DNA from: a virus
Lineage: Duplodnaviria; Caudoviricetes
DNA: 54,445 nucleotides
Direction: 5' to 3' (one strand)
IMG/VR virus record: IMGVR_UViG_3300011116_000620
Span: 1 to 54,445 of that record
Below the pieces are notes generated by a model. That model did not search any database. It saw nothing but the letters and a program-made list of their open reading frames with translations, and was not told the origin of the DNA. Of this stretch, positions 709-51,601 are shown one piece after another (position 1 is the stretch's first letter; the number at the start of each line of letters is the position of its first letter). The position numbers and the translations under genes were made by a program.

Positions 709-3700
709 TCATTCAAAGATTTTTCCATAAGTCTCCTTTACTGGTGCTTCGCCTTTTGTCCTAGATACATTTCCGTCCACTTGATAGCCTATATCAATAA
801 GGTTCTCCTTGGTCAATTTATTCCAAGTATTCCTAGCCTTTTCTGATGCGCCCTTGATATAGCTGTAGGGAACCCAGCGTCCGTTAGGCTTGTTAAACCT
901 TTGCGATGCCCTGCCAAGAGCAGTCTTATCATCCACATCGATATGCACGACTCCGATGGTATATCCAAGTGCTTTCAGATTTTTTGCCATCTCGGATACC
1001 TTGGTTGAGTTCTGCCCAGTGATATCGATAAGCATATTATGGCGTTCCTGTGTGGCTCTTGGCATGATCATCTTTTCTGCGATGATGGCCGATTCATCAT
1101 GGAAAGCACCAGCGTTCCAACCTTGGAATCCGTGAGATTTTGATTTGATCGAATCTGGATCGATAACCGTTACCTGTTGACCGCCTAGAATCTTTTCTGC
1201 AAATGGACGACCAGTCGTTGTCTTTCCGCTGGCTGGAGATCCCATGAGGATAACCGCCACTGGATTGTCGGATTTTGCGTTTGGATTAAGTCCATCCTTG
1301 ACCTGCTGGTTGATCCATTCTTTGTGATGAGGCGTAGGATTCCGCAAGGTTTCAACTATATCCTTGCTCTGTTTATACCGAGAAGGATCACGAAGCGACC
1401 ATCTGGTAACGCTTGCGTCATCAAATGATATGCCCTCACGATCCGCTGTCTGTTGCCGTAGCCTGTGCATATCTGCGATGGCCTTTTTGGCTTTTGGCTC
1501 ATTTTCAAGCCTTTTGACCATTGAATCCACATCTTCGCCATCCTTGGATTCGCTTGTTTCGGAAACTTGTTTTGCCTTGGTTGATGCCTTGGCTGATTTG
1601 ATCCCACCGCCGCCTGACCATCTTCCCTTTTCATCCCTTGGTTGGTTTGGATCGTAAAATTCAATTTTTTCTCCGTTGTACTGAAAAACAAATGATTCAA
1701 TCGCAACCGATTCATCGAATTGGAATCCCTCGGAGCCGTCATCTGGTAGTTGAATCACGATGGGTACATATATCAACTGACTTCCCTCTGCCAACTCTTT
1801 TGTTGCTAGGGGCGATGGTTTGGGGCCATTCTCATAAACATACTTGCGGATTGCATCTACCTCGAAAATTTGCATTTTCTTGATGGCACTTGGGGCAACC
1901 CCGCCGTCCTTGGTAAAAATTTTAGACACAGCCGCCAACCCAGTCTTCCCCATCTTTTGCGCCTTGGTTGTTGGGATATTGTCGGCAACGCTTTTGAATC
2001 CTTCAGCCAAAACGCTGATAATCCCGATAAGCTGTTTGCCTCCGATCTTTGGGGCATTCCCAGAACGCAATACGCCGTACTCCATAGCCAGATCCAAGCT
2101 GTCGGTGCTGTACACCTTGCCACCACCCCAAACCCCGCTTTTAGATGGCTTTAAGCCCTCTTTTCGTATGGTTTTAAGGACATCTGCCGATGTTCCGTGA
2201 TAAAGAGTGGTAGCCTCTCCTGTCTTCTTGCTGGCTTCCGCTGGATTATCTTGCGCCCATCTTGGGGTGGGAGTCGCCCCCTTGGATATCCCTCCGCCAT
2301 CCGTCCATTTCCCAGACTGATCTCGCTTCTGACTAGGATCGTAAAAATTTGTTTCAAATTTTGAAATAGATGATTTTTTTATTACTTTTGCAAGTTTTTC
2401 TGGAAAGAAAATTTTATATACTATATGTCCTGCATCTGGAAGTTTTAATCCGTCAAATCCCCAGCTAATTAACTGATCGGTAACATATTTATCATATTCC
2501 TTCCACCCACCAAGCTTTAGTGAGCTTTCATCAATTATTCTTTCAACAATATCTCCATGTCCACTTGCCCCTACATCCTTCTTAACTATTGCATCTTTAT
2601 TCGTGGTAAGCCACATCCCACCATCAGCAGATTTTTTAACATCATATCCGTGTTTTTCGATTGCTTCTTTTGCTTCTTTTGTCGTTCCGTGATATGCAAC
2701 AACACTAGATCCAGATTCGCTCCACTTGCCAGACTCATCCCTTGGCTGGGATGGGTCATAGAAGTTTATCGCTTGATAGCTCCTGTAATAATTACGCCCT
2801 CGTCCTCGTTGTAGTCCGAGATGAACTCGATTCGGGAAAGATCGCTCGTAGTTGTCGATGACTCCTTTGTAGGCTTTTTTTCCTGCAATTCTTGTGTCTC
2901 CACCGATGAATTCACCGATGCCTCTGACTGCTTCTGATTTTCCATTTATTGCTCCTAGAAATTTGGCAACATTCGCCGTCAACTGCGATCCTTTGTCGAG
3001 GATTGTTACGCTGGTTTTGGCTCTGTCACCCACCATTGTTCTAAAACTGATTCCATTATCCGACAAGATTTTTCTGACTTGATCCATAGGCTTGTCTGCC
3101 GTGATCTTGTGCAGAATGTCGGGACCGTCCTTCTTTTTCTGGAAAGCCACGACTGCCTTCTGGTTCAACATGGCTCCAAGCTTGGATGCCGTATATGCAA
3201 GCTGTTCAAAATCCTTGATGCCTTTTACATCGATCTTTACGGAGTTCTCTGCTCCATCTTCCCAGTCCCCAATGGCAGATTCAATTTTCCCGCTAATTTT
3301 TTGCTTGTCGATCAGATCCTTGGCTATGCTGACTGCTCTGGCTTGCTCTGGAGATTTAAGCATCTTGCTTGCCTCTTCATAATTCATGTTCTCCCTGATA
3401 TTCGGAGACACCATGATTTGCCCGCCTTCCGAAGTCCATTTTCCAGATTGATCTCTGGCTTGTGAAGGATCGTAGGCAAATGTGGCTACCTCAAATATCT
3501 TTTTCCCTTCGATTTCTTCACGAATCGCAACTGCAATATTGTCTGCCAAGTAATCTGCAATATCATTAAAGTCTGGAGCCTTTTCTAAGGCAACCATATT
3601 TCCCTGTGCTGACATCGGCTGAATACCAATACTTTTTCTTACGATATTTGATATCTGCCTACCGCCATCAACCTTGTTGTATTCGGAAACTGCTCCACGA

Positions 3701-5010
3701 ATAAATCCTTTTAGTGCAGACCGCCCAGCGATAATGGCTCCCAATTCTGGATTAAACAACGATCCAATAAGAATTTTATACCTGTCACCATGAGCAGATT
3801 TTATAGCCTCAATCGTTCCCTTCGATCCTATGCTTACAATCCTTGCTACTCCATGAAGGAATTTCTGCCCATCGTCACTGGATAACCAATTTTTGATCTG
3901 ATAGGCCTTGGAAGCCCCATATTGACCCGCAACCCTAGCTCCACTGGCAATAGCAGTAATCCCCTTTATAGCCCCCTTTACGCTCGATTTTGCCATATCT
4001 AGGGCTGAGTTTTCTTTTTGAGCCTTCTCTATTAACTTGCTTTTGAAGTCACCGCCTTGGCTAGTCCACTTTCCAGACTCATCTCTAGCCTGTGAAGGAT
4101 CGTAAAGAAGTGTGGCTCCTTGTTCCTTTAGTGACAAAAGATCAGCTTTTAGCTGTTCCAAATTGGTCTTGTCGGTGATCGGGCCACCCACAATCCAAGC
4201 ATCGCAGGTTCTTAGCGAGGCACATTTGAAATCGAAGATTTCGCAGTAGCCAAGATCGCCAGCTTGTTCAACTTCCTGTGCGTCAGATCCAATTCCCTTG
4301 CTGATGCAGTCTGTGAGTTTGGTTGTCTGATTGAATCCAGCGCAGTTCCCGCAACGCATCGTCTTGGCTTCTTTGACCGATCCTCCGAAGATTTTTGCTT
4401 TCGCAGTCCAGTATTCTTCATTCGGCTCCTTGGGATTGGCTGGGCCGTAATGTGCTACATCAATAGCTTTTTGCCTGTTTGCTAGATTGGTTTTGATGTC
4501 CTGTGTTGCGAGTGGACACTTGTTTGAATCAAAATTTATTTTATTTTCTTTACTAGAATATTCCGTGATTTGATCTGGGCTAAATGCTATATATGAATCT
4601 CCTTCTCCTTCAAATTTGTTATTATAAACAACCCCATCGTATCCAGCATTTTGAATTGCGTTTCTTATTGCACTTGTAGATGCCGAGGCATGAAGCTTTG
4701 ACCCAATGGCCTTATTGACTTGCTCTACCACCTTTTCCCCATACCATGCACCCATATCTTTAAGTCTTAATGGTTTTTCTATTTTTACTTTATAAGCTTT
4801 TATTGTTCCTCCGTCTCCCACTCTCCAATCTGCCTGCTCTTTTGTTCCAAAATGAAATCCAATATCATTCCCAAGAAAAGCTGTACTAAATTTATCAAAA
4901 ATAGCTTTTGTTCCATGATACAAAATAGATGGAATAGATTCTTTTGAAGATGCACAAGTATTGCCCTCTTTAAATCCACCAGCCCCAGTTCCGCAGTCTT
5001 CAAGATTCAT
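709..5010 (-). CDS. Polyvalent head-module polyprotein: 3 ADP-ribosyltransferase-like modules, Cys-rich module, 2 unknown modules, C-terminal zeta-toxin-like P-loop kinase
   Basis: LYHGT..GFHFG..GYDGV; AYHGTT..GFDGL; LYHGTS..IRKEGLKP..VYST; MGSPASGKTT/IDPDSIK/IDITG; five YDPxQxRDxxGKW repeats; ATG at 5010 after extended -10 TGCTACAAT. Confidence 0.8.
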   Translation of the reverse strand: MNLEDCGTGAGGFKEGNTCASSKESIPSILYHGTKAIFDKFSTAFLGNDIGFHFGTKEQADWRVGDGGTIKAYKVKIEKPLRLKDMGAWYGEKVVEQVNKAIGSKLHASASTSAIRNAIQNAGYDGVVYNNKFEGEGDSYIAFSPDQITEYSSKENKINFDSNKCPLATQDIKTNLANRQKAIDVAHYGPANPKEPNEEYWTAKAKIFGGSVKEAKTMRCGNCAGFNQTTKLTDCISKGIGSDAQEVEQAGDLGYCEIFDFKCASLRTCDAWIVGGPITDKTNLEQLKADLLSLKEQGATLLYDPSQARDESGKWTSQGGDFKSKLIEKAQKENSALDMAKSSVKGAIKGITAIASGARVAGQYGASKAYQIKNWLSSDDGQKFLHGVARIVSIGSKGTIEAIKSAHGDRYKILIGSLFNPELGAIIAGRSALKGFIRGAVSEYNKVDGGRQISNIVRKSIGIQPMSAQGNMVALEKAPDFNDIADYLADNIAVAIREEIEGKKIFEVATFAYDPSQARDQSGKWTSEGGQIMVSPNIRENMNYEEASKMLKSPEQARAVSIAKDLIDKQKISGKIESAIGDWEDGAENSVKIDVKGIKDFEQLAYTASKLGAMLNQKAVVAFQKKKDGPDILHKITADKPMDQVRKILSDNGISFRTMVGDRAKTSVTILDKGSQLTANVAKFLGAINGKSEAVRGIGEFIGGDTRIAGKKAYKGVIDNYERSFPNRVHLGLQRGRGRNYYRSYQAINFYDPSQPRDESGKWSESGSSVVAYHGTTKEAKEAIEKHGYDVKKSADGGMWLTTNKDAIVKKDVGASGHGDIVERIIDESSLKLGGWKEYDKYVTDQLISWGFDGLKLPDAGHIVYKIFFPEKLAKVIKKSSISKFETNFYDPSQKRDQSGKWTDGGGISKGATPTPRWAQDNPAEASKKTGEATTLYHGTSADVLKTIRKEGLKPSKSGVWGGGKVYSTDSLDLAMEYGVLRSGNAPKIGGKQLIGIISVLAEGFKSVADNIPTTKAQKMGKTGLAAVSKIFTKDGGVAPSAIKKMQIFEVDAIRKYVYENGPKPSPLATKELAEGSQLIYVPIVIQLPDDGSEGFQFDESVAIESFVFQYNGEKIEFYDPNQPRDEKGRWSGGGGIKSAKASTKAKQVSETSESKDGEDVDSMVKRLENEPKAKKAIADMHRLRQQTADREGISFDDASVTRWSLRDPSRYKQSKDIVETLRNPTPHHKEWINQQVKDGLNPNAKSDNPVAVILMGSPASGKTTTGRPFAEKILGGQQVTVIDPDSIKSKSHGFQGWNAGAFHDESAIIAEKMIMPRATQERHNMLIDITGQNSTKVSEMAKNLKALGYTIGVVHIDVDDKTALGRASQRFNKPNGRWVPYSYIKGASEKARNTWNKLTKENLIDIGYQVDGNVSRTKGEAPVKETYGKIFE
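1615..1656 (-). repeat. Peptide repeat 5 YDPNQPRDEKGRWS
   Basis: Translated sequence. Confidence 0.95.
2302..2343 (-). repeat. Peptide repeat 4 YDPSQKRDQSGKWT
   Basis: Translated sequence. Confidence 0.95.
2719..2760 (-). repeat. Peptide repeat 3 YDPSQPRDESGKWS
   Basis: Translated sequence. Confidence 0.95.
3433..3474 (-). repeat. Peptide repeat 2 YDPSQARDQSGKWT
   Basis: Translated sequence; DNA nearly identical to repeat 1. Confidence 0.95.
4063..4104 (-). repeat. Peptide repeat 1 YDPSQARDESGKWT
   Basis: Translated sequence. Confidence 0.95.
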
Positions 5011-5043
5011 GCGCTTTGAATTGTAGCAAAGCGGATTCACTTG

Positions 5044-7038
5044 TTATTTGCTCCGCAATTTGTCTAGTTGTCCGACAATCTTTCTAGCTCTTGCAAGCCC
5101 CGCATCGCCACCCCACCCCATATAGGCTTGCCATCCTTTGCCATGCTCGCTCCATGTCGAACCCTTCTTGTCCACCTCATGTCGTGATAGGAAGCTGTAG
5201 ATACGCCTCCAAGTGCGGGGAGAAAGCCGTTTGCGTCCGATAATATCTCTAGCCCTAGCGATTCCTACCTGTGTCATTCCACGCTCGCTTGCTGGTTTTT
5301 CGGCACGAACCCGCAAGGCCGCTTTCGCCGCTTGTACCATTCCATCCGAGGGAGTCAAATCAATGTCATCAATCGACTGCATTTCAATGGCATCAAGAAT
5401 CATCTCCGCATCTTGCGTGGTAAAAGTCTTTGAGTTGGTCGTGCGTCTGGCTCTTGGAATAAAATCGTCATCCAGATATTGAGGAGCCGTTTTCACTTCC
5501 TCTTGCTTAGGTTGTTCCGCTGGGGGTTGTTCTGCTTCTGGTGCTGGTGCTGGCATCGGGAAGGATGGCTGACCAGTCTTGAAAGCCTCAGAAATAGATT
5601 CGATTGGAACATCCATTTCTTTCGACAATTCCTTTGCAAACTTGACCTCGTAAGCCCTTTGACGAAGTGCTTCTTCATAGTCCTCGCCCTTGGCTCCGTA
5701 CACCTCTGCCGCCGTTTTCAGACCTGCCTTAAACTCGCTGATATTGGCGTTTGAATCACGCCCAACATCAATGGTGGAATCGGAGGGATAAATCCATTTC
5801 CCATTTGTAAAATTCTTGATTGGCGGGATTTTTCCTCTAGCGATTCCGTCAGCCAGCACAACATTCTTAACCCTGTCGAAGAATCGATCTTCAAAAATAG
5901 TCTGCCATCTCTTGAAAGTCCGTGAAGCAAGAGCCATCTCTAGGCGAACAGTAGGGCCGCCAAGTTTTGAAAGATCGTAGCAGAATCCAAAGGGCAAATT
6001 AAATGCAAGGGCAATCATGTGAACGATAAGATCAACATATCCTTGAAAGGCAGAGGATGGACGATTGCTTTCGAACATCTTCATTTCAGATCCAGTAGGG
6101 ATATAATTGATTTGCCCCTTTTGCATATTTTCCAGATTGATTGTATTTCCGTAAGAATCAGTCTGGGCTTGATTGAAATACGAGGCGGGATCATCCGAAG
6201 ATCCAGTGGCGTTTGAGATTGTCATAATGCGGAACGCCGCATTCTTAACGGCAAGGTTTTCCGCATCCATAGTTTCGGCAAGATCCTTGCAATAGTTCAC
6301 AACCGAAGCCAGATGACTACGGCCACGAACCTCATCCAGCCGAAGGGGATCATAAATCAATAGGAAGCTCTGGGCGGGAATATCCTGTGCGTCAGTATAG
6401 AAATTGCCTTGTGTGCGCCGATAAACCTTGTAGGCAACGGAACGACCATATTCGTCAAACTTAATTCCAGCAATATATTCTTGTGACGATGTGGGGTTGT
6501 CAAAACTTCCACCGATACGATCTGCCTCCACTGCCTGTAGCCGAATGTCGCTGTTAGGGTCAACTTGTCCGTCAATCGAGCGTTCTCTGGTGATGACAAA
6601 TCCAACATCTCCGTCACGAAGAACCGACCTCAAGGCCAGATGGGACAAGGCTTGGAAGCTGTGTCTCCCAAAGAAGTCACAACGCTTGCACCAAGCATTC
6701 CAGTAATCTTCATAGGCTTGATCGATTTTCCTGTCTCCAGTGCGTGACATATAGCGGAAATTTCCAAGCGCATACTGGGAGAATTTAAGCAGAATAGAAC
6801 GAACAATAGGATTGTTGTCCTCAAGATCACGACCAGCCTTTAAAAGTTCCAGCCGTTCATAGGTTGCAGAATAGCCTTCGCCACCAGAAAGAGGGCGGGA
6901 AGGAAGTCTGTCCCGAAGAGGATATGCTCCAGCAAATCGAGAAAATTCGATTAGCTTGCATTTGTCGGCAAGACGCTTGACCCCAAAATTAGGGTTGATC
7001 GCCGTGATTGCCTTCTCAAATAAGTTAAGCTTGGGCAT
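5044..7038 (-). CDS. Portal protein, lambda family, with C-terminal extra domain
   Basis: RDLEDNNP, RDGDVGF, LQAVEADRI, GIKFDEYGR, EVRGRS motifs; located downstream of terL and gpW-like gene. Confidence 0.9.
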   Translation of the reverse strand: MPKLNLFEKAITAINPNFGVKRLADKCKLIEFSRFAGAYPLRDRLPSRPLSGGEGYSATYERLELLKAGRDLEDNNPIVRSILLKFSQYALGNFRYMSRTGDRKIDQAYEDYWNAWCKRCDFFGRHSFQALSHLALRSVLRDGDVGFVITRERSIDGQVDPNSDIRLQAVEADRIGGSFDNPTSSQEYIAGIKFDEYGRSVAYKVYRRTQGNFYTDAQDIPAQSFLLIYDPLRLDEVRGRSHLASVVNYCKDLAETMDAENLAVKNAAFRIMTISNATGSSDDPASYFNQAQTDSYGNTINLENMQKGQINYIPTGSEMKMFESNRPSSAFQGYVDLIVHMIALAFNLPFGFCYDLSKLGGPTVRLEMALASRTFKRWQTIFEDRFFDRVKNVVLADGIARGKIPPIKNFTNGKWIYPSDSTIDVGRDSNANISEFKAGLKTAAEVYGAKGEDYEEALRQRAYEVKFAKELSKEMDVPIESISEAFKTGQPSFPMPAPAPEAEQPPAEQPKQEEVKTAPQYLDDDFIPRARRTTNSKTFTTQDAEMILDAIEMQSIDDIDLTPSDGMVQAAKAALRVRAEKPASERGMTQVGIARARDIIGRKRLSPRTWRRIYSFLSRHEVDKKGSTWSEHGKGWQAYMGWGGDAGLARARKIVGQLDKLRSK

Positions 7039-7471: not shown

Positions 7472-7945
7472 TTAGGATAGGCTGATTAGGTACTTGAACC
7501 TGTTTAGTTCTCCAACAATTCCGTCTCGAAGGTTCAATAAATCGGTATCGGATTGTTTAATGCTTCTTGTGAAGTCGTTCATCATAAAGTCGATTGCTTG
7601 ATTGGCAAGGGTAACGCCAGCCCCATCGACCAAATTATACAGCGAAATATTAAAGTTGGCGGTTGCTTGCGCCCTTCCGTACTTGCCAAAATAAGTTTCA
7701 AGAAGTTCGTCAATAAGCTCGTCTAGCTTCTCATAGATGTTGCCAAAAGTCTTATGATTTGCATAGCTTTTAGTTTGCCAGTGATAAATGCGGAACTGAT
7801 TCTGCACATAAAGCAGTTTGGTTACAATGATATCCCCATTATTTTTGGGGGCGATCTCTGTAAGAACTTCAACTGGAGCCTTCTGAATCTCTAGGTCTGT
7901 TTGCATCTTATCGACCTTTTCAAGCATCTTATCGATATAATTCAT
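7472..7945 (-). CDS. Dps/ferritin-like protein (DUF5856-like)
   Basis: HWQTKSYANHKTFGNIYE..D.LLETY.GKYGR; DLLNLRD..KYL. Confidence 0.75.
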   Translation of the reverse strand: MNYIDKMLEKVDKMQTDLEIQKAPVEVLTEIAPKNNGDIIVTKLLYVQNQFRIYHWQTKSYANHKTFGNIYEKLDELIDELLETYFGKYGRAQATANFNISLYNLVDGAGVTLANQAIDFMMNDFTRSIKQSDTDLLNLRDGIVGELNRFKYLISLS

Positions 7946-8229: not shown

Positions 8230-8431
8230 GCTTTTGTGTAGCTGTCAACTTTTGCCTATATTTACTGCGTTTTTTAGCATACTTCCAGATAACGCCATTT
8301 TTATCAAGATCACAAGATGCCAGCATAAGCTCCCGATAGAGCCAGTAGCCCCATCCTGTGCTTAACATGAAAAAGCTGTATAAATGCCCTATTTGATACA
8401 AAAGCCACGATAAACCCAGTTTAAGACTCAT
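8168..8431 (-). CDS. Hypothetical membrane protein
   Basis: ATGA overlap with the terL stop; hydrophobic N-terminus. Confidence 0.45.
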   Translation of the reverse strand: MSLKLGLSWLLYQIGHLYSFFMLSTGWGYWLYRELMLASCDLDKNGVIWKYAKKRSKYRQKLTATQKHGYPRRILRTRSSHSNKYSN

Positions 8432-10218
8432 TTTTCGGCATCCTCATCGATCTTTTCAGTTTGCGGGGTTGGCATACACCCAGAAAGCATCGCTCCCACT
8501 AGGTTCATGGCTTCAGCGTCAAACAAGTGATTATCCTTGCGAATCCTTATCCATACCATCTTAGTCCTACCAGAAAGGGGATTAAACTTCGCCCTTTTCA
8601 CTTCTGCGTTCATATGATTGTGCCAGTCTTCGGGGCAATCGTCTGGAATCTCCCATTTGCTCATCTTGCCGTTCTTTAACATTGAAAGCATATCTTTAAC
8701 GGCTGGATTCGACCATCGAATCACTGGACACTTTGTTTTCATCAGACCTTCGCTTTGTGCCGATCTGCCTGTTCCAGAAAGCGGATCACCCCAATTTATT
8801 GGGCTATATGGGCGAATGGTCTTTCCAGATGATGTCATATGCAAGAACTGGGCATTATCCGATCCTAGCAAACAAGTCCACCCCCATCTGCAAGCTTGAT
8901 AATAAACCTCCCTCGTATTGGCTCCGCTATCGCAGAAAACCATTTTGTCATCAACCTTCCAGTCCAACTGAGTTGCTCTTAAGGCATCCCAAGACTCCAG
9001 CCTCCCACACCATTCAAGCTTTGATTCTCCCTTTGCGTTCCACCCTCGAACAACGACCCACATATGGAAGCCCTTGGCTTCTTGAATGTCCGCAGTGATG
9101 ATTCTCTTGGTTGCCTCCTCCCATTTCTGACCCATGCGATATCCAGATCCAGTAACCCTAATTTCCTCTTCTTGTTCATTTTCTACCCAAGGTTGCGCCA
9201 AGACTGAATTGACGAAATTCTGCAATCCCATTACGCTTTTTTTGTCGTTTAGGAATTGAACAGCCAGCTTTCCGAAAGTCTCCCAAGGCGAGTAGATTCC
9301 AGACAAATGATAGGATTTTACCTGTGGCTCTGGATTTAAATTGGTTGGCTTCCACTTTCCCTGTCGAAGCATTTTAGTTTTGTGACCATCCGTGATTTTA
9401 CCCTTGCAAGCAACGCACTCATAGTAGGCACTGACTTTCACCTTTTCATTGTCCCATTCACCGTCTGCTCCCCTAGCGTTCTCATCCCATTTCACATTAG
9501 GCCAGCTAAGAACCTGTTCCTCATTACAAAATGGGCAGGGAACATGATAGTACCTCTGATCTCCTCGCTTGAATGCTTGCCAGATGTGGCCGTGTTCGGT
9601 TGTCGGAGTAGAAGTCTGAACAGTCAAGGAAAGCGGATAGGTCTTGGTTCGCACCTCTGCCAAAGCTAGGGAGTTTGCCTCCTTGGATGTTGCCTCTGCC
9701 ATCTTGTCAGTTTCATCGCAAATTAGTAAGCCTACGCTACGAGATGCAAGATTGGCCGGTGAGTTGCTTCCAAAAAACCAAACCGACATTTTATCAAAGT
9801 GCTGTTCCATCAGTTTGTACTTGTCCAGATTCTTTGGCTTGTGCCTCGCCAGTGCCTCGCAGTCGTCCACCATTGGCAACCAACGATATTCGGAAAATGA
9901 CCTAGCCAAGTTCTCATTAGGCATCACCCACATTGTAGGAATAGGCTTCATATCAAGCCTGTACGCCATGCCAGCCAAGATTGAGGTGGTTTTAGCCGTT
10001 TGTGCCCCCCAACAAAGAATCAACACTCTTGTTTTTTCATCCCGAAAATTCTCCATTGGCTCCCGAACATAAGGGGTAAGAAGGGTGGAATATGGGCCAG
10101 CAGTCGAAGAAACTCGCTCAGAAAGATACAGATTCGATTCTGCCCATTCCGTCACAGAAAGATCACGCCTTGGCAACCAGAATCCATGCGCCAGCACTTC
10201 AAGCTCTTCTGCTGTCAT
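8428..10218 (-). CDS. terL: Terminase large subunit, lambda GpA type
   Basis: WGAQTAKT Walker A variant, LLICDETD Walker B, STPT, GDQRYYHVPCPFC, FCDSG, DNHLFD; ATG at 10218 overlaps the upstream stop. Confidence 0.95.
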   Translation of the reverse strand: MTAEELEVLAHGFWLPRRDLSVTEWAESNLYLSERVSSTAGPYSTLLTPYVREPMENFRDEKTRVLILCWGAQTAKTTSILAGMAYRLDMKPIPTMWVMPNENLARSFSEYRWLPMVDDCEALARHKPKNLDKYKLMEQHFDKMSVWFFGSNSPANLASRSVGLLICDETDKMAEATSKEANSLALAEVRTKTYPLSLTVQTSTPTTEHGHIWQAFKRGDQRYYHVPCPFCNEEQVLSWPNVKWDENARGADGEWDNEKVKVSAYYECVACKGKITDGHKTKMLRQGKWKPTNLNPEPQVKSYHLSGIYSPWETFGKLAVQFLNDKKSVMGLQNFVNSVLAQPWVENEQEEEIRVTGSGYRMGQKWEEATKRIITADIQEAKGFHMWVVVRGWNAKGESKLEWCGRLESWDALRATQLDWKVDDKMVFCDSGANTREVYYQACRWGWTCLLGSDNAQFLHMTSSGKTIRPYSPINWGDPLSGTGRSAQSEGLMKTKCPVIRWSNPAVKDMLSMLKNGKMSKWEIPDDCPEDWHNHMNAEVKRAKFNPLSGRTKMVWIRIRKDNHLFDAEAMNLVGAMLSGCMPTPQTEKIDEDAEK

Positions 10219-10742
10219 TTGAATTGCTCCGAAGCACTCATCACATTTGTTCCTATGGGATACAAAATTTTTTCCGAGTTGGTTTGGCAAATCACCTGCA
10301 TTGTGTGTTTGAGATCGTCAAAAGCCCAATTCATCAGCACATCATCCATCGCCATGTCTGTAAAAATGATGTCTCTTGCTGGACGCATCTTCCACAAGAA
10401 CTGGATTCCTGTGCGTATGACCGAGTACGACTCTGGAACCTGTGGAGCAATCCCGACCCACGACCTTATTCTGAATCTGGAAAGCTTGTAGATGATTTCC
10501 AACCCTGCCTGTTGACTCGATCCGCAGAACCATACTGGATGACCACGCTCGTTTAAAAACTTTTTATTCTGCTTTTCCTTGGCTGTATGGGGAGAGAAGA
10601 AAAACAGATGAGGATAAATCATGTGTTGAAAGCAATCCTCTGCCATAAAAGTTGCCGACCATGCGTGTCGGCTGGTTGGCTCCCCGCAACAGACTATCGC
10701 TACTTCGTCTGTTTTTCTCTTGGTTTTAGCCCAAAGACCCAT
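10215..10742 (-). CDS. Hypothetical protein
   Basis: 175-aa ORF overlapping both neighbours. Confidence 0.6.
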   Translation of the reverse strand: MGLWAKTKRKTDEVAIVCCGEPTSRHAWSATFMAEDCFQHMIYPHLFFFSPHTAKEKQNKKFLNERGHPVWFCGSSQQAGLEIIYKLSRFRIRSWVGIAPQVPESYSVIRTGIQFLWKMRPARDIIFTDMAMDDVLMNWAFDDLKHTMQVICQTNSEKILYPIGTNVMSASEQFK

Positions 10743-11331
10743 AGGTGCGATCCACGCAGTCCTTAATGATCTCGGCTGTTCCCTCCACTTTGTTGTATTC
10801 GCCTATCTTTTTGATTTTTCCGAGAAAGTCCTTTAGATTCTTTTTCTCAATATAAAGAGGGATCATTTCAATATCCACAAGGTCAGATTCCCCCTTTCCT
10901 CCGATTTCCTCTTCTGGCGGGGTTGCCAGCATCATCTTTTCTATCTCCTCATTTGAGAAGCCTGTAAGCTGAAGATCGATGTCTGTTTGATCTATTTCTT
11001 CGAGGAGGTCTTTGAGGGCTTGATTGTCGAATTCACCCGCAAGATTGTTGAGGGCGAGGTTGGCGACCTTCTCCTTTTCCTCTGGGAGATCGACTGCCCA
11101 CACATCGATTTCGTCCCGCCCCATAGCTTGATAAATCTTAAACCTTTGATGACCCCCGATGATCCTGTTTCCAGTCCGAACATTGATCGTGATGGGTTGG
11201 AGATCCCCCAAATCTGCAAGGCTTTTCGTGAGACGACCCATCGCCTCTGAAGTAATTTTTCTAGGATTGTAGCCAGCCCCTTGTATCTCACTTAACTTCA
11301 GCCTCAACAGCTTGGGGTATTGCGTCTTCAT
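10726..11331 (-). CDS. ParB/Srx N-terminal domain protein
   Basis: YNPRKI..LTKSL..G.LQPI..N..IIGGHQR..LALNN. Confidence 0.85.
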   Translation of the reverse strand: MKTQYPKLLRLKLSEIQGAGYNPRKITSEAMGRLTKSLADLGDLQPITINVRTGNRIIGGHQRFKIYQAMGRDEIDVWAVDLPEEKEKVANLALNNLAGEFDNQALKDLLEEIDQTDIDLQLTGFSNEEIEKMMLATPPEEEIGGKGESDLVDIEMIPLYIEKKNLKDFLGKIKKIGEYNKVEGTAEIIKDCVDRTYGSLG

Positions 11332-11992
11332 TTTTGGCTAAAGTGGGTTCATTTGTCTCAGTGTCAATACCTTTTGCATCTTCAGTAAATAACCCGCCTT
11401 TCGTCTTTTCAATTACTGATATGATTTGCCTAACGCCATCTGCGATTGCTTCCTTCGCCAATTCTGGATCTGATGGGTTCGCCCTTCTGCAAACGCTCGC
11501 TCCAAGTCCTTCCATCAAATTTCGAATCGTCATCATGTATCTGGAAAATATCGCCCTAGCCACGTCAGCATCAATCTTTGACCCCATAGCAGTCTGCAAG
11601 GTTTCGACCTTGATCTCTGCCTCCATTCTGCTTTTGACTGCCTCCCGATGTGCCTTAACTAGATTTGGCAATCGACCAGATTCTCTATTCACCTGTGCTT
11701 GGTGAAGGATGGCATATGCGACCTTCTCAGTCTGCCTTGCCCTAGCCAAGCAACCATAGATGTCGTCCCTCATTAAGTCGCTGGGATTGATTGGACTCCC
11801 TGTGTCTGGCGGGATCTCGATTCCCCCAGATATGCTCCCAGTCTTGATAACCCTGCTCGACCTCTCCCTGTTAGCCTCCCTCCAAGCAGTAGCGTTTTCG
11901 ATGGTATCAGTAGGCATTCCCATCTTTTTTAGCTTTGAAATGTAAGGCTGGGAACAGCCCCAAGCATCAGCTATTTCTTGGTGAGTTGCCAT
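11288..11992 (-). CDS. terS: Terminase small subunit (Nu1-like HTH)
   Basis: N-terminal HTH QEIADAWGCSQPYISKLKKMGMP; upstream of terL. Confidence 0.75.
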   Translation of the reverse strand: MATHQEIADAWGCSQPYISKLKKMGMPTDTIENATAWREANRERSSRVIKTGSISGGIEIPPDTGSPINPSDLMRDDIYGCLARARQTEKVAYAILHQAQVNRESGRLPNLVKAHREAVKSRMEAEIKVETLQTAMGSKIDADVARAIFSRYMMTIRNLMEGLGASVCRRANPSDPELAKEAIADGVRQIISVIEKTKGGLFTEDAKGIDTETNEPTLAKNEDAIPQAVEAEVK

Positions 11993-12163
11993 TTGTTTTT
12001 TATAGGCTTACTTTGTTTGAGAACAAGGTTTATTTGTATTAACTTAAACTTCAGTGAGTTATAGATCAGAGAATTTCATCGGGGCTTCGCCAACCTGCAA
12101 ACATTATAAAATCTAAAAGTTATCTACATTTTTGGTTTAATGTGTCTCCTGTTGCCTCGCTCA

Positions 12164-12622
12164 TTAAATGCCCTGTAATCGCTCTCTATTGGCCTTTAAA
12201 CGCATCTTGGCAAGCCTTTGGCCTAGTCTTGTGGCAGTCAGCCTAGAGTTTGGTTTTTTAGCCCCCGCCAGTATCAGGTGATAGTGAATGCTGTTGTGAT
12301 CCTTGTGTAACACTCTGGATATCTGGTTGGGTGTAAGTCCTCGCTTGTATAGCTCCACGACTACCTGCCTTCTCATTTGTGTGAGGTTGTCGTGACGCTT
12401 GCTACTCTTTAGTTGGGCTATCTCTTCTGGGGTGAATGTGGCCTTTAGGTATCCCTCACCCTGTACCTCTCCACTTGCGAACTTATCTCTCTCCCCCCTT
12501 ATCCCTAATGTATCTACTATGTTCTGCATTCTCTCAAGTAGCTTCTTATGTCTGGCTAGTTCTAGCTCCACTATGGCAAGCCTATTGGTCAGGATATTTG
12601 TGGAGTTGGTTATAGTGATCAT
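12164..12622 (-). CDS. HTH DNA-binding protein (resembles DnaA C-terminal HTH)
   Basis: GLTPNQISRVLHKDHNSIHYHL; ATGA overlap with the upstream gene. Confidence 0.55.
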   Translation of the reverse strand: MITITNSTNILTNRLAIVELELARHKKLLERMQNIVDTLGIRGERDKFASGEVQGEGYLKATFTPEEIAQLKSSKRHDNLTQMRRQVVVELYKRGLTPNQISRVLHKDHNSIHYHLILAGAKKPNSRLTATRLGQRLAKMRLKANRERLQGI

Positions 12623-13128
12623 TCTGCCTCCTTCTGGCATAGTTCTTTGAATGCTATTTGTATATCATTTGGTGCTGGTAGCCTTAGAATTGCACTGCCA
12701 TATAGATAAGTTTTCCCCAGAAAATGTGAGGGGAATAATGTCCCCTTGACACTTGCAACATCCACTTCTTTTAGGTCTGCCTTTTCCAATTCCAGTATTT
12801 TGTCATTGAATGAGGCATCCCCAAGTCCCGCATAATATATGCACTGCTCTTGCTCTAGTGTGCCAGCCCTAGTTATGTTTTCATCCCAAAATTCGAATTG
12901 CTTTAGCTGTGGGCAAAGGGCGATGAACTTTTTCCAGTTCTTCCCCTTGTCAGTCATATAGTAGTAATCACCAGATGTTTCATCTGTAAATACTGCACAC
13001 TCACCATCTCTTTTGTTTTTTGTGCGTATGCCCCAGATGCCAGAGAAGGACAGGTATCCACCATCGCTGAGTGTTGCCCCAACCAAAATAAACTCATTCT
13101 CTGAAGCCCTCCAGACTTGGCAGTTCAA
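12619..13128 (-). CDS. Hypothetical protein
   Basis: 169-aa ORF coupled to both neighbours. Confidence 0.6.
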   Translation of the reverse strand: MNCQVWRASENEFILVGATLSDGGYLSFSGIWGIRTKNKRDGECAVFTDETSGDYYYMTDKGKNWKKFIALCPQLKQFEFWDENITRAGTLEQEQCIYYAGLGDASFNDKILELEKADLKEVDVASVKGTLFPSHFLGKTYLYGSAILRLPAPNDIQIAFKELCQKEAE

Positions 13129-13394
13129 GGCATTTCCTCAAGCAGACTGACAAAGCTTTTTTCAAGACTCCTGTTGGTTGCCTTTAGAAAATCATCCAGC
13201 CTCTTGAAACACCCCCTCAGAATTTTCTTTTCGTATCTCCCATAAAAATTATATTTCTGAAGCAGGCCAGACTTGCACAACTGCCTTACGAATTGCATCT
13301 GCTCTGAGGTGGGAAAGATAATGCTCGCCTTCTTTGGCGTGATAATTTTCTTTTTTTTCTGCTGACTATTTAGTGCCATGCCTTTGCATCCCAT
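13125..13394 (-). CDS. Hypothetical protein
   Basis: AGGAGG Shine-Dalgarno before ATG. Confidence 0.55.
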   Translation of the reverse strand: MGCKGMALNSQQKKKKIITPKKASIIFPTSEQMQFVRQLCKSGLLQKYNFYGRYEKKILRGCFKRLDDFLKATNRSLEKSFVSLLEEMP

Positions 13395-13406
13395 GTGTGT
13401 TCCTCC

Positions 13407-13577
13407 TTATTTTCGTTTATGAAAGTGACTATAAACTGATACTTCATAGGTTTGATCCACCAGCAAAACCTCCAAATATTTATTCATATCCATGCCATGA
13501 AGCTCTGCCAACTTCTTCCACATTTCGTAGGCTTCTGGCTTCATGTCGTGGGTGACGATGGCTTTTGTTATTGGCAT
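13407..13577 (-). CDS. Small ribbon-helix-helix-like protein (56 aa, not in ORF track)
   Basis: MPITKAIVTHDMKPEAYEMWKKLAELHGMDMNKYLEVLL: strand-helix-G-helix pattern. Confidence 0.5.
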   Translation of the reverse strand: MPITKAIVTHDMKPEAYEMWKKLAELHGMDMNKYLEVLLVDQTYEVSVYSHFHKRK

Positions 13578-13675
13578 AATTTAGTCCACCAAAGCCAACA
13601 CCAGTGCCAGTGGATACATCCACCAAGGCATATTGAATTCGTGAATCAAGACACATGCGATCATCAATTTCAGCA

Positions 13676-14326
13676 TTATTGTTTCTCCATGATATATCCA
13701 GCAAACTCTCCCATTCTGAAAAACTCCACTGCATTAGGGAATAATTCGCTTTGATCAACTGCCCTCTGCACCCCGCATAGGGATAGTTCTTTGTTGATTA
13801 TTTCTTCTGGGGTTACGCCATTCTCAAGCTTGTTGTTCATTGTCATTTTCCTTATGACTGAGCCAGCGTTTCCTCCTGTTGTCTGAATTTTTTCAAGCAT
13901 CACAATAGCCCCGCCATGCTTGCACTTCGCCATCAATGAGTCAAGAAAATTCACCCTAATTGATCTTTCGATAAACATGAAACTCAAAAAGAAAATCGCC
14001 AAGTCGAATGGTGCATAATCAATTTTTGTTGCGTCATCAATAATTAGCCTTCCAAACCCTCCATAATTTTTTGCAATCTCTTGGCTTTCCTCGATTGCTA
14101 TAAAGTTTATATTTCGTTCTGCGATAAGGCTTGTGATCGACTTTGATATATTTCCTGTGGATGCCCCTATGTCGTAAATGATCCCATTTTTAGGCACATA
14201 ATTTCTGCATATAAAGGCGACTGCCCTAGTTGCCATATCATACCAAGGCAGTTGCTCCCTTACATGAGCATCAAAGTTTTTAGCTATATCCTCGCTCTTA
14301 AATGACCATGACTCAATACCATTCAT
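13676..14326 (-). CDS. cmoA: CmoA-like carboxy-S-adenosylmethionine synthase
   Basis: WSF...IAKNFDAHVREQLPWYD, IYDIGASTG, FMFI..R, EK; SD AAGGAG; overlaps the MTase 3' end. Confidence 0.8.
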   Translation of the reverse strand: MNGIESWSFKSEDIAKNFDAHVREQLPWYDMATRAVAFICRNYVPKNGIIYDIGASTGNISKSITSLIAERNINFIAIEESQEIAKNYGGFGRLIIDDATKIDYAPFDLAIFFLSFMFIERSIRVNFLDSLMAKCKHGGAIVMLEKIQTTGGNAGSVIRKMTMNNKLENGVTPEEIINKELSLCGVQRAVDQSELFPNAVEFFRMGEFAGYIMEKQ

Positions 14327-48794: not shown

Positions 48795-49757
48795 TTACGA
48801 AGCGGAGTAGTTAGTCGTGATCAATTCAACAGCCGTGCTGTCGATGACCTTAACCACACGATTCGAGCGAACACGCAGGATGTTGCTACGCCGTCCTTCG
48901 TCCCGATAGCTTTCGGCAACGAAGGGAGCAGAAGCATCCTCGCTCCACACAATCGTGCGACCCACGCCACCAGAGGCAAAATCGCCACCAGCAACATATC
49001 CAACCGCCACATAAGTCGTGGGGAGGATGAACGCACCGCTGAAGGTCTGACCTTTAGCCGCACTGTTCTTAGCCGCTTTACCAACAAGAACCTTCTCAAC
49101 GCCAGCCGCTTGAGCAATCTCGACTTCCGACAACAGACGGCGGGAGTCAGTCGCAACCACACCAAAGAACTGATTCTGGGTGAGGGGGCTACGGCGAACA
49201 AGGTCAAACACCTCTTGGTTCATGATCACGCAGTTGGCGATCACGCCCTTTTTGAGCAACCGCTGTTTAGCGGCGGCCACGTCAGCCACGAAGTTCAGCG
49301 TGGAGAGGGAGCTAACGGTGTAATTAACCAGAGGGTTAGTGGCAGTGAAGGTGCTGGAATCGAACAAAGTCGCAGCAACTTCAGCCTCATGACCGATCTG
49401 AATGTTGCGGAGAAGGATCTTCGCAGTCTCAGTCTCCAATCCGAAGAAACGAGACACATCAGAGGCCAAGGCATCCGGCACAACTTCCTCAAGCCCGAAC
49501 TCAACGCAAGTGAAATTATCATTATCAAATGCTCTGGACGAGCGTGGATACGCAGAACCGGGGGCTACCTTCGAAGCATCGCTGTTCAGAAGTTCAGCGT
49601 TGCCAAGCTGGAGCTTGAGGTACTGCCCCGCACGAACAGGGCTGTTGTAGATGGGGAACACATCGGTTCCGATGAATCCTTGATCCATCTGTGCCCCTTG
49701 GATGAGGGCGGTGGTGATATCGCCACGCAGAGTGGCGTTGCTAGTTAGGTAAGACAT
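48795..49757 (-). CDS. Major capsid protein (lambda gpE-like)
   Basis: 320 aa after the decoration gene; FIG..VFP, RNI..GHE; GC-richer codon usage. Confidence 0.85.
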   Translation of the reverse strand: MSYLTSNATLRGDITTALIQGAQMDQGFIGTDVFPIYNSPVRAGQYLKLQLGNAELLNSDASKVAPGSAYPRSSRAFDNDNFTCVEFGLEEVVPDALASDVSRFFGLETETAKILLRNIQIGHEAEVAATLFDSSTFTATNPLVNYTVSSLSTLNFVADVAAAKQRLLKKGVIANCVIMNQEVFDLVRRSPLTQNQFFGVVATDSRRLLSEVEIAQAAGVEKVLVGKAAKNSAAKGQTFSGAFILPTTYVAVGYVAGGDFASGGVGRTIVWSEDASAPFVAESYRDEGRRSNILRVRSNRVVKVIDSTAVELITTNYSAS

Positions 49758-49775: not shown

Positions 49776-50123
49776 TTATCGGTTGATGAACACTTCGATG
49801 ACATCACCAGTAACGCCTTGGTTACGAGCGACACCAAGAACAACCGTGCCAGCAGTGCTGGAACGGCCATTTGCACCGACATAAAGAGTGTCGGAAGCCG
49901 AAACAGTGGTTCCACCAAAAATGGTGAAGTTGGAGGGGTTCCAGAGCTTAACCAAGCCCACCGAACCGCTAACCACGTCCTGTTGCAGAACGCCGATAGA
50001 TTTTCCAGCAGTGGCGCAAGCCTGTGCCGTATTATCGGTTGAAGTCATGCTGACGATGCTATTCGCCGTCACCGTGGAGGCGAAAAGCAACGAAGCAAAT
50101 CCAGAATCTAATTGAGTTGCCAT
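49776..50123 (-). CDS. Capsid decoration/cement protein
   Basis: IGV.QQD..G; LY.GANG; GVA..G..GDVIEV. Confidence 0.75.
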   Translation of the reverse strand: MATQLDSGFASLLFASTVTANSIVSMTSTDNTAQACATAGKSIGVLQQDVVSGSVGLVKLWNPSNFTIFGGTTVSASDTLYVGANGRSSTAGTVVLGVARNQGVTGDVIEVFINR

Positions 50124-50141: not shown

Positions 50142-50603
50142 TTAGAAGCTTTTGAAGCCACCAGCGGAAAGCTCTTTCCGATATTGTTCAGTGTATTTAC
50201 CAATGCAAAGACGAAGAGCTTCGCCCTTGGAGATGTTATTTTGTTTCATCTCAAAATTTACCAGTTCCGCAAAAGTCTGTGGCTTTTTCTCTTCAACAGC
50301 GGGAGCCGAAGGAGCAATAGGAGCCGAAACCATTTTGGAAAGTTCCGTCTTGATTTCATTCAAAACGCCAGAAAGCTCGGTCTTGGATTCATCGTTAGCC
50401 GACATTTCCTTGGCGGGAATGGTTGGCTTGGACTCATCCTTGGCGGCGATGTTTTCTGGAGTGTTTTCGACCACATCAACAGGAGTCAGTTTAGCTTCCA
50501 AAGCCGAAAGGCGGGTAGCGAACTCTGCCATCTGTTTGCCGAGGTCTTCCATGTTATAAGAAGGAGTTTCCTTCTTGTCGGCAGTATCAGCAGTATTTTC
50601 CAT
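50142..50603 (-). CDS. Probable nested in-frame scaffold protein (MENTADTAD...)
   Basis: TTGACA-N17-ATG motif at an internal Met just after the protease domain. Confidence 0.6.
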   Translation of the reverse strand: MENTADTADKKETPSYNMEDLGKQMAEFATRLSALEAKLTPVDVVENTPENIAAKDESKPTIPAKEMSANDESKTELSGVLNEIKTELSKMVSAPIAPSAPAVEEKKPQTFAELVNFEMKQNNISKGEALRLCIGKYTEQYRKELSAGGFKSF

Positions 50604-51587
50604 ATTACACAAATTAGTCTTGTCAACTACTACACAACCAGAATCGGCAGAAAAAAGCCCTTGGGGATTCGCCGCTGGATGCTGAACCAGATCGGCAGAA
50701 TACAATTCTGCACACCTAGCAAGATCAAAATTTGATCCGTTTATCTCTGAATCACCGCTGAATGAAATCGAAATCCCAAACGCATCTGGGATCTCGGAGG
50801 CAAGATCCATGTAATATTTTGCACGATCTTGGCGACTCTTGAGAAAAGTAAGATCAGCTAACAGCTTGTTCCCGCTTTCATCAATTCTGAAGTTGGTGAG
50901 TTTGCCGATAATATCAGCAATACCAGCACCATGATTTTCATTCACCTTAACACCACCCTTGAATTGCTCGGCGCATTTCTTAACCTGCTCAAGCGTGGTT
51001 TTATCAATTTCAAGGCGATGGCCTTTAGCCATGCCAGTAGTAAGAACCGAAACACCTTTAATAGTCATATCACCGCCTTCTTCATAGTTGTATTTCTTTT
51101 TTCCCTGACCTTGAATCACGGCCTCTGGGATACTGCCTCTTGGCGCACCGCCAGTTCCAGCTTCACCCCCGCCAGTCGCATAAGCCATTTCCTCTTCATC
51201 TTCAGAGGTGGATTCACCGATTGCTGGCTCGATATCCGTTGAATCACTGCCAGATTCGGAAACGCTGTCCATTTCCTCATTGTCGTAAATTTCAGAAGCA
51301 ATCTCGGCACGATCAGAAGCCTCTGGGAACAATTCCATCATGGCTTCATCAGCCACAAACCTACCCAGAAATTCAGCAAAAGTTTCGTCTGGGTTAGGAG
51401 TCAGAATGCCAGAATCGGACTCAAGATTAGACTTTTTTTGCTTCTTTTTGGTATCACGAAAGATACTAGCCCCGACTGCATAACGCTGTTTATTGTCTTT
51501 GTAATCCTTTACAGCGGTAGGGTTTCCCATGAACTTTTTCATAAAATCGGCAAGTTTCTCGCCTTTTTTGGGTGTAGGTAGGGGCAT
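50142..51587 (-). CDS. Prohead protease-scaffold fusion
   Basis: GVSVLT.G.AKGH, NH..G..IIG, FGISISF, SADLV.HPAANP; coiled-coil C-terminus. Confidence 0.85.
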   Translation of the reverse strand: MPLPTPKKGEKLADFMKKFMGNPTAVKDYKDNKQRYAVGASIFRDTKKKQKKSNLESDSGILTPNPDETFAEFLGRFVADEAMMELFPEASDRAEIASEIYDNEEMDSVSESGSDSTDIEPAIGESTSEDEEEMAYATGGGEAGTGGAPRGSIPEAVIQGQGKKKYNYEEGGDMTIKGVSVLTTGMAKGHRLEIDKTTLEQVKKCAEQFKGGVKVNENHGAGIADIIGKLTNFRIDESGNKLLADLTFLKSRQDRAKYYMDLASEIPDAFGISISFSGDSEINGSNFDLARCAELYSADLVQHPAANPQGLFSADSGCVVVDKTNLCNMENTADTADKKETPSYNMEDLGKQMAEFATRLSALEAKLTPVDVVENTPENIAAKDESKPTIPAKEMSANDESKTELSGVLNEIKTELSKMVSAPIAPSAPAVEEKKPQTFAELVNFEMKQNNISKGEALRLCIGKYTEQYRKELSAGGFKSF

Positions 51588-51601
51588 ACCCAATTTAAAA
51601 G

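Follow-up and report, generated by a model that had tools for sequence, protein, structure and literature searches.

The IMG/VR virus record IMGVR_UViG_3300011116_000620 (Duplodnaviria; Caudoviricetes) carries, directly downstream of its portal gene, a single gene for a chain of effector modules in which one short peptide returns five times, and the question raised by this locus is what that peptide does. The window, by which we mean the whole stretch of DNA that was analyzed, spans 54,445 bp and is a complete phage genome with a 127-bp direct terminal repeat, in which positions 1-127 are identical to 54319-54445. The polyvalent effector gene lies at 709..5040 on the minus strand, which also carries all other features of this genome described below unless the plus strand is named. 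A sequence-only reading of the window had taken its product for a modular effector protein encoded next to the portal gene; both the domains and the gene context bear this out and place it in the head module of the phage. With at least two distinct effector domains and a place in a portal-terminase gene context, the product is, as judged from its sequence, a phage-type polyvalent protein in the sense of Iyer, Burroughs, Anand, de Souza and Aravind (2017, J Bacteriol; PMC5512222), a kind of protein predicted to be packed in the head and injected. Four properties of the repeated peptides, called tags below, speak for a role in head packaging or release and against a plain spacer: they are conserved at the peptide level, lie in disordered linkers, have a strong polarity and are restricted to head-linked proteins.

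The gene had been described as a 1433-aa open reading frame (ORF) adjoining the portal gene. The frame and its position stood, but the start was corrected from an ATG at 5010 to a GTG at 5040, which gives a product of 1443 aa. The GTG is found four bases past the portal stop codon, behind a GGAG, and is most likely the true start, since relatives conserve the residues encoded before the ATG (LCYNSKRM) and one of them has an ATG at the equivalent position. Residue numbers in this text refer to P0001, the 1433-aa product counted from ATG 5010. The portal gene (5044..7038) had been called correctly; it encodes a portal protein of the lambda family (Phage_portal_2, PF05136, E 7.3e-50; phrog_21). 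A related portal was encoded at 31 viral loci with 34-95% identity. The portal stop was readable in 29 of the 31. All 29 have a next frame within 5 nt, and in all 27 relatives with a downstream ORF the effector gene starts 1-5 nt past the portal stop. The present genome has a single codon between the portal stop (TAA) and the polyprotein start, which share one frame (window 5038-5046). Read-through of this stop was considered and rejected: the effector frame was +0 in two of the 27 relatives and +1 or +2 in the rest, so that the in-frame arrangement is a matter of chance.

A six-frame scan and a direct-repeat search located the five tags at the sites where the sequence-only reading had placed them, and a Gly/Ser linker follows each one. 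Tag 1, YDPSQARDESGKW, is followed by TSQGG (4066..4104; P0001 residue 303), tag 2, YDPSQARDQSGKW, by TSEGG (3436..3474; residue 513), tag 3, YDPSQPRDESGKW, by SESGS (2722..2760; residue 751), tag 4, YDPSQKRDQSGKW, by TDGGG (2305..2343; residue 890) and tag 5, YDPNQPRDEKGRW, by SGGGG (1618..1656; residue 1119). The residues ahead of them are TLL, TFA, INF, TNF and IEF, as described earlier. The common pattern is YDPxQxRDxxG[KR]W, and a six-frame regular-expression scan of the whole 54.4-kb window found no copy of it outside the polyprotein ORF. At the DNA level the tags form one five-copy direct-repeat family with 65-80% identity, and a degenerate DNA pattern matched five times on the reverse strand while the same pattern read backwards, used as a control, matched nowhere. 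Invariant residues are coded by different synonymous codons among the copies (Arg by AGG, CGA and AGA, Gly by GGA, GGG and GGC, Pro by CCA and CCT), indicating that the conservation acts on the peptide and not on the DNA. In the AlphaFold2 (AF2) model the tags flanking module 3 had low confidence beside a well-folded module (tag 3 with a low predicted local distance difference score), as is expected of a linear motif in a disordered linker.

The tags separate six modules. Module 1a (P0001 residues 27-150; 4561..4932) is an ADP-ribosyltransferase (ART) of the ART-PolyVal type (PF18760, E 7.6e-17, 62.8 bits against a cut-off of 31.2). It is followed by module 1b (residues 165-282; 4165..4518), a Cys-rich domain with eight Cys that had no Pfam match and showed 52% identity (tblastn, E 7e-33) to a phage ORF; the depositors of that ORF named it 'high potential iron-sulfur protein', a name to which Pfam gives no confirmation. 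This Cys-rich domain is the first module of the effector gene in many relatives. Module 2 (residues 316-512; 3475..4065) is rich in Gly, Ala and Ser and had no Pfam or PHROG match and an Atlas score of just 0.75. Its family, A, was found in 16 of the 24 polyprotein ORF segments compared, which makes it the module most often retained among relatives. Module 3 (residues 526-750; 2761..3435) was modeled by AF2 (predicted TM-score 0.71) as a tandem of two ferredoxin-like alpha/beta units, and its homologs in other tagged proteins are 25-34% identical, with the motifs VSPN, GAWxDGAENS, QKAV and FHT invariant. Foldseek matched it to ACT-type and designed ferredoxin folds. The phage S-adenosylmethionine (SAM) lyase 6ZNB stood ninth (E 5.7e-4), one among many ferredoxin-fold matches; a SAM-lyase assignment was rejected, the Atlas lead being 0.81 only, the hhalign probability against the T3 SAMase 0.17%, and no Pfam match being present.

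Module 4 (residues 764-889; 2344..2721) is a small ART-like domain with the motif AYHGT. Against the profile of module 1a it gave an hhalign probability of 97.4% (E 1.1e-11), and against Pfam ART-PolyVal a score under the cut-off (E 0.0041, 18.3 bits). It is the singleton of module family K, present only in this phage among the close relatives compared. Module 5 (residues 903-1118; 1657..2304) is a probable ART/PARP/Tpt1-like domain with the motif LYHGT; its PARP match (E 0.0026) is under the cut-off, its local match to an NCBIfam RNA 2'-phosphotransferase (E 9.6e-7) far under it, and hhalign gave 85% probability against module 1a and 93.9% against module 4. Of the three ART-like domains claimed earlier, module 1a is supported by its Pfam score and module 4 by profile comparison, and module 5 is the weaker case. 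The zeta-like kinase claimed earlier was confirmed: module 6 (residues 1132-1433; 712..1617) matched Zeta_toxin (PF06414, E 1e-18) with 67.9 bits against a cut-off of 22.3, the match covering 796-1287 (residues 1242-1405), and its sequence contains the Walker A motif GSPASGKTT. By score and motif it is therefore classified as a zeta-toxin-type P-loop kinase. No MuF domain was matched in P0001 at E<=0.01, which sets the protein apart from the MuF polymorphic toxins.

Comparison with close relatives showed that modules are gained, lost and reordered exactly at the tags. Written as module families, this phage has the order I-A-B-K-C-D, one relative (L089) has C-B-D and another clade (L077) has F-A-E; a further relative (L075) carries an extra module, and in many the N-terminal ART is missing, so that the Cys-rich domain comes first. 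One clade has a gene that opens with M-x-QFSYNSKKIEF and carries a YDP tag next, at residue 15; the equivalent leader of this phage, LCYNSKRMNLE, is followed by DCGTGAGGFKEGNTCA (4951..4998) in place of the YDP tag. The presence of this N-terminal sequence had been reported by the sequence-only reading. Its pattern, DCGTGAGGF[KQ]xGNxC[AG] (also DCGTGAGGFKxGNTC), was found in at least 147 stretches of viral contigs (loci including L100-L179), among the matches listed up to three times per contig and about 330-425 aa apart. The copies are N-terminal or lie between modules and are followed by a Gly-rich or acidic linker; some directly precede an ART (xYHGT), and in P0071 and several viral loci the motif stands between modules, after the Cys-rich domain. 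Because it sits where relatives carry the YDP tag and also between modules, the DCGTGAGGF motif is, on this sequence evidence, a second class of tag, interchangeable in position with the first.

How far the YDP tag reaches beyond this phage was determined by pattern and profile searches. A strict back-translated pattern gave 57 loci on 41 viral contigs. A profile built from 49 tag stretches, the cross-genome check that had been proposed for the tag, was searched against 1.84 billion representative proteins and matched 2244 of them at E<=1e-3, 402 at E<=1e-10 and 25 at E<=1e-30. The matched proteins are up to 3010 residues long and have up to nine matched stretches each. Tag consensus and placement statistics were taken from the best 150 of the 2244 proteins. 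A regular expression found 414 tags in these, with the consensus [VLTI][AK][KA]-[FY][DNS]PxQPRD[ED]xG[RK]W[TS]xGGGG, and nine of the 13 tag positions hardly vary among phages of Actinobacteria and Proteobacteria. The residue preceding the tag varies (K in 142, A in 97, E in 42, F in 40, N in 26 and G in 26 of the 414). Pfam and PHROG scans of bare 36-aa tag peptides returned weak chance matches only and no family that models the tag. The PHROG label 'head maturation protease' attached to phrog_12708, 595, 16493 and 18402 was rejected as evidence of tagged proteases, because the matched parts are the tag or MuF-like regions; the stretch of tag 5, for example, matches profile positions 3-39 of phrog_12708.

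In bacterial genomes a variant of the consensus was found at 62 loci, mostly in Alphaproteobacteria and also in Amycolatopsis, Bacillota, Bacteroidota and Planctomycetota. Among the loci L247-L308, many alphaproteobacterial genomes have small ORFs of about 120-550 aa in which a conserved amphipathic leader (...LKFRRFMLALKAGF) lies directly ahead of the tag, and their variable C-terminal parts are Ntox50, RNase A-like, lysozyme, hydrolase or of no assigned type. tblastn with this leader found nothing relevant among cultured phages. In a Blastochloris sulfoviridis prophage (L303 55-3033) the gene after the portal gene encodes a 269-aa tagged toxin, which has a helical leader; then come a 129-aa ORF, possibly an immunity gene, and the start of an HK97-type S78 prohead protease.

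The only cultured phages in which short-peptide tblastn found the tag were the cluster H mycobacteriophages and Nocardia phage P3.1, a match in Xanthomonas phage OP2 being spurious. The tagged protein of these phages is basic and about 250 aa long, has the tag at residue 3 to 6 and is encoded between the portal and the scaffold/capsid genes. In Mycobacterium phage Predator (gp14-gp15; L097 4995-6203) the tagged protein, gp14, is very basic and begins with MSFNPRQPRDRLGRW, and the next gene encodes a Prok-JAB peptidase; the corresponding region of P3.1 is L096 4992-6147. Neither gp14 nor its P3.1 homolog had a Pfam domain, and the label 'capsid/head maturation protease' on the cluster H protein looks unsupported. 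tblastn with the whole of P0001 against cultured phages gave single-domain matches only.

The placement of the tag was consistent. None of 91 tags fell inside a Pfam domain (30 proteins with 41 Pfam domain stretches); tags and domains alternate. The tag was within the first 40 residues in 43 of the 150 proteins and within the last 40 in one of them, a strong N-terminal bias that agrees with tags standing at the head of modules. In at least 12 of the 43 N-terminal cases the leader ahead of the tag was 11 residues or shorter, the shortest having 2 residues. A domain scan of 138 tag-bearing proteins or ORFs then showed what the tag is attached to. It directly followed a portal domain in 13, a MuF domain in 7 and Peptidase_S78 in 1 (L280, the only tagged protein with a real Peptidase_S78 match), and some of the portal-fusion cases are close relatives of each other. 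These three were the only non-effector domains in the sample, and no relaxase or type IV secretion domain appeared in its domain lists. A lack of association of the tags with head modules in other phages had been named beforehand as one finding that would refute the packaging idea; in view of these fusions and of the Blastochloris gene order, this test did not refute it. The cargo comprised several ART families, zeta toxin, topoisomerase IB, GNAT, histidine phosphatase, 2H phosphoesterase, an ATLF-like zincin, a PI3/PI4-kinase-like domain, lysozyme, Ntox50, CdiA-CT RNase A and a MafB19-like deaminase. No domain was matched in about half of the proteins (26 of 55 in one subset).

We consider there to be about an even chance that the polyvalent protein is packaged and that the tag is a module-initial recognition peptide for loading into the head. 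In such a scheme one polypeptide of enzymes directed at the host (three ADP-ribosyltransferase-like domains, a zeta-type kinase, a Cys-rich domain and two further modules) would be made late, at the same time as the head proteins, then enter the capsid and be delivered along with the DNA. Each module would be headed by a short disordered peptide on a flexible Gly-rich tether, of one of two classes, YDPxQxRDxxG[KR]W (in general form [FY][DNS]PxQPRD[ED]xG[RK]W[TS]xGGG) or DCGTGAGGFxxGNxC. The tag would serve as a handle by which some conserved part of the head under assembly, situated at the portal vertex or close to it, picks up each effector for loading, and it would also mark a boundary where modules can be separated. 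That the protein is encapsidated and injected we infer from the analogy to T4 Alt and to other polyvalent proteins, and we likewise infer binding of the tag to a head component and whatever cleavage of the polyprotein may take place. An address is favored over a cutting site because tags occur at the extreme N-terminus, because the cluster H head-module protein has nothing upstream of its tag, and because the other head proteins of this phage lack the motif; with leaders of 2-11 residues there is nothing useful to cut off. A wider form of this proposal, which we regard as possible and somewhat doubtful, is that both tags are portable capsid-loading peptides of tailed phages which recruit any tethered protein to a conserved procapsid site, perhaps around the 12-fold portal crown, the cargo being ejected later.

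Several observations weigh against a loading address. The portals, capsid proteins and proteases of tagged phages are very diverse, and a head surface as conserved as the tag is hard to see. Effectors fused to a portal or MuF domain retain the tag, even though the fusion should by itself secure packaging, and this suits a release site better; also, one address per polyprotein should suffice, so that repeated tags suggest that the modules become separate. F116 p60 and PSS2 gp030, polyvalent proteins of cultured phages, had no tag; hence the tag is not required for all polyvalent proteins. A PF04860 portal lay directly beside the tagged ORF in one of five alphaproteobacterial genomes checked; a local tblastn search for portals beside tagged ORFs found fused portals only (9 of 62 loci) and was insensitive, as it missed the Blastochloris portal detected with PF04860. 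Finally, the phage and its close relatives are known from sequence alone, and the receptor of the tag is putative.

These objections lead to the alternative, already put forward by the sequence-only reading, that the tags are processing sites, at or beside which the prohead protease of this phage or another peptidase cuts in the procapsid, freeing the effectors from each other and from their anchor, be it a portal, a MuF domain, a protease or a helical leader. The candidate enzyme is P0002 (483 aa; 50142..51593), which the sequence-only reading had named as the prohead protease and which proved so by its fold. It consists of a confidently modeled N-terminal helical domain (starting MPLPTPKKGE), an acidic disordered stretch, a protease domain at about residues 175-305, which AF2 predicts confidently as a beta-rich domain, and C-terminal helices. 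With the protease domain as query, the best Foldseek matches were three chains of T4 gp21 (5JBL, E 4.9e-4 to 2.3e-3, target TM-score 0.51-0.55), followed by herpesvirus assemblins, and His192, His221 and Ser275 are invariant in 36 homologs. P0002 had no match in Pfam, PHROGs, NCBIfam or PDB sequences, hhalign against HK97 gp4 was not significant, and among its 490 homologs none of the 120 listed had a Pfam domain. On the strength of the predicted structure we assign it to the prohead proteases of the HK97/T4 gp21/assemblin fold. Complex prediction with P0002 and the tag alignment gave a score of 0.00 in two runs without controls and is evidence neither way.

A protease of this fold in the same head module is what processing would call for, and the tags lie in accessible, disordered linkers, recur before every module, come near the protein end in just 1 of 150 cases and persist directly behind portal, MuF and S78 domains, the very places where an effector would need to be released. 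In T4, gp21 cuts Alt and the internal proteins once they have been targeted, and the targeting peptide is removed after loading. The pre-toxin domains of polymorphic toxins have likewise been described as possible processing sites (Zhang et al. 2012, PMC3482391). However, the motif is absent from every other protein of the phage, including capsid, scaffold, portal and the protease itself, so it is not the general site of the protease. The wide variation of the residue ahead of the tag and the very short leaders also disagree with a cutting site, and Predator and P3.1 are tagged, yet a Pfam scan found only the Prok-JAB peptidase and no S78 protease between their portal and capsid genes. Cleavage of the tag by itself, at Asp-Pro or Asn-Pro, is unlikely, since 74 of the 414 tags have Ser at that position. 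That processing is the sole or main role of the tags therefore seems doubtful to us. It may also hold together with loading, and by analogy with T4 the two roles are compatible.

The exchange of modules invites a further explanation, in which the tags are mainly demarcation or recombination junctions and flexible spacers, similar to VENN motifs, with no specific partner. Modules are indeed inserted, deleted and reordered exactly there, the 11 residues ahead of the tag travel along (the leader FxYNSKKIEF equals the end of an ART module, FQYNGEKIEF), and typical polymorphic-toxin cargo is present (Ntox50, CdiA-CT RNase A and MafB19-like deaminase). This account is unlikely nevertheless, for the 65-80% DNA identity of the copies with its synonymous differences indicates selection on the peptide rather than on a recombination sequence, the near invariance of nine of 13 positions in distant phages goes far beyond the needs of a spacer, and tags at the very N-terminus are left unexplained. 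It is similarly improbable that the tags act only after injection, whether by binding a conserved factor of the host or by guiding a host protease that would separate or activate the modules. A partner common to all hosts would account for the conservation of the tag over phages of very different hosts, and processing of polyvalent proteins after injection was considered by Iyer et al. (PMC5512222). But head proteins are the sole non-effector fusions of the tag in the 138 proteins and conjugation proteins are missing, though conjugative polyvalent proteins also enter cells; moreover the cargo includes lysozyme and toxins with unrelated targets, for which a common host target is not expected. 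That the polyprotein is not packaged at all, but is a late cytoplasmic multi-enzyme in the head module by accident, is very improbable, given the tight spacing of effector gene and portal stop in the relatives examined, the direct fusion of tagged effectors to portal, MuF and S78 domains in other lineages, and an ART-PolyVal and zeta set typical of the phage-type polyvalent proteins predicted as packaged (PMC5512222).

The remaining head genes follow on either side of the polyprotein gene. Their order on the minus strand is terminase large subunit of the gpA type (8428..10290; PF05876, E 3e-60), a head-tail adaptor-like ORF, a DUF5856 protein (7472-7945, between the terminase and portal genes; its PHROG label is 'starvation-inducible transcriptional regulator'), a 142-aa ORF, the portal gene and the polyprotein gene. 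They continue round the genome end with the 483-aa ORF of the protease, a scaffold-like ORF (49776..50123) and the major capsid protein (48795..49757), the last two being covered as a pair by phrog_673 and phrog_1005. A plus-strand ORF spans the genome join (from 53848 onwards to 573), and its sole family match was a weak PHROG of unknown function. The minus-strand regions 10726-15389 and 46342-48563 contain a ParB-like protein adjoining the small terminase, two DNA methyltransferase-like genes, a tRNA methyltransferase-like gene and a 558-aa glycosyltransferase-like gene adjoining the capsid gene.

To our knowledge, phage-injected proteins and their route of entry into the head are known for only a few model phages, namely T4, P22, N4, P1 and SPP1. 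As a rule that can be read from sequence, the tag would reveal injected effectors and toxins in uncultured phages and prophages, and the tag system would show how polyvalent proteins are assembled through module exchange. Should the tag be an address, it would offer a way to load chosen foreign proteins into phage capsids; should both tags be portable loading peptides, the injected-effector repertoire of thousands of phages and prophages would become definable from sequence. The cluster H mycobacteriophages of Mycolicibacterium smegmatis, with their N-terminally tagged head-module protein, provide a tractable system.

Among known systems, the T4 capsid targeting sequence is a short N-terminal peptide on proteins that are packed into the head and injected, and its cargo includes the ADP-ribosyltransferase Alt. 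This phage resembles T4 in having ADP-ribosyltransferase cargo and a prohead protease of the gp21 fold in its head module. Unlike the T4 sequence, the tag is repeated within one polypeptide and conserved across very distant phages, and it is not known to resemble the targeting sequence or the L/I-x-E cut site. Encapsulin cargo-loading peptides are also short conserved peptides which, on a Gly-rich tether, bring diverse enzymes into a shell of the HK97 fold, and fusions of cargo and shell exist. They are mostly C-terminal and bind the shell, whereas the tags are N-terminal to their modules, and a phage shell holds DNA and ejects its cargo. If the loading proposal is true, the tags would be the counterpart of the encapsulin peptides and a far more widespread analog of the T4 targeting sequence.

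The pre-toxin boundary motifs of polymorphic toxins (PT-VENN; PMC3482391) are comparable in being short conserved elements before variable modules, points of exchange and possible processing sites; the tag differs from them in sequence and in its delivery route, the phage head, and recurs before every module instead of once. The MuF or phage-head polymorphic toxins (PMC3482391, PMC5576092) share the cassette-like exchange of cargo, being built of a head-protein anchor with variable C-terminal toxins, and some tagged proteins elsewhere carry MuF together with Ntox50, RNase or ART cargo; P0001 differs in having no MuF domain and in having six modules against one toxin. The phage packaging row of Zhang et al. 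(PMC3482391) lists MuF and papain-like proteases and no pre-toxin motif, and Jamet et al. 2017 (PMC5576092) make no mention of a motif, linker, cleavage, junction or pre-toxin. Closest are the polyvalent proteins (PMC5512222), with which P0001 shares several effector domains, portal and terminase neighbors, ART-PolyVal and zeta-toxin domains, and relatives fused to portal or MuF. A large member of this kind (gp47) has been detected in phi24B virions by proteomics (bioRxiv 10.64898/2026.04.10.717836). P0001 differs from them in having no LPD match and no zincin-like metallopeptidase, the processing enzyme proposed for them (PMC5512222). A repeated inter-domain motif is not described in the text of that paper, its supplementary files aside, and with the same limit neither tag motif is named in the searchable literature. 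The protein is thus a member of a known polyvalent kind, and what is new in it is the tag system, a previously undescribed feature of that kind.

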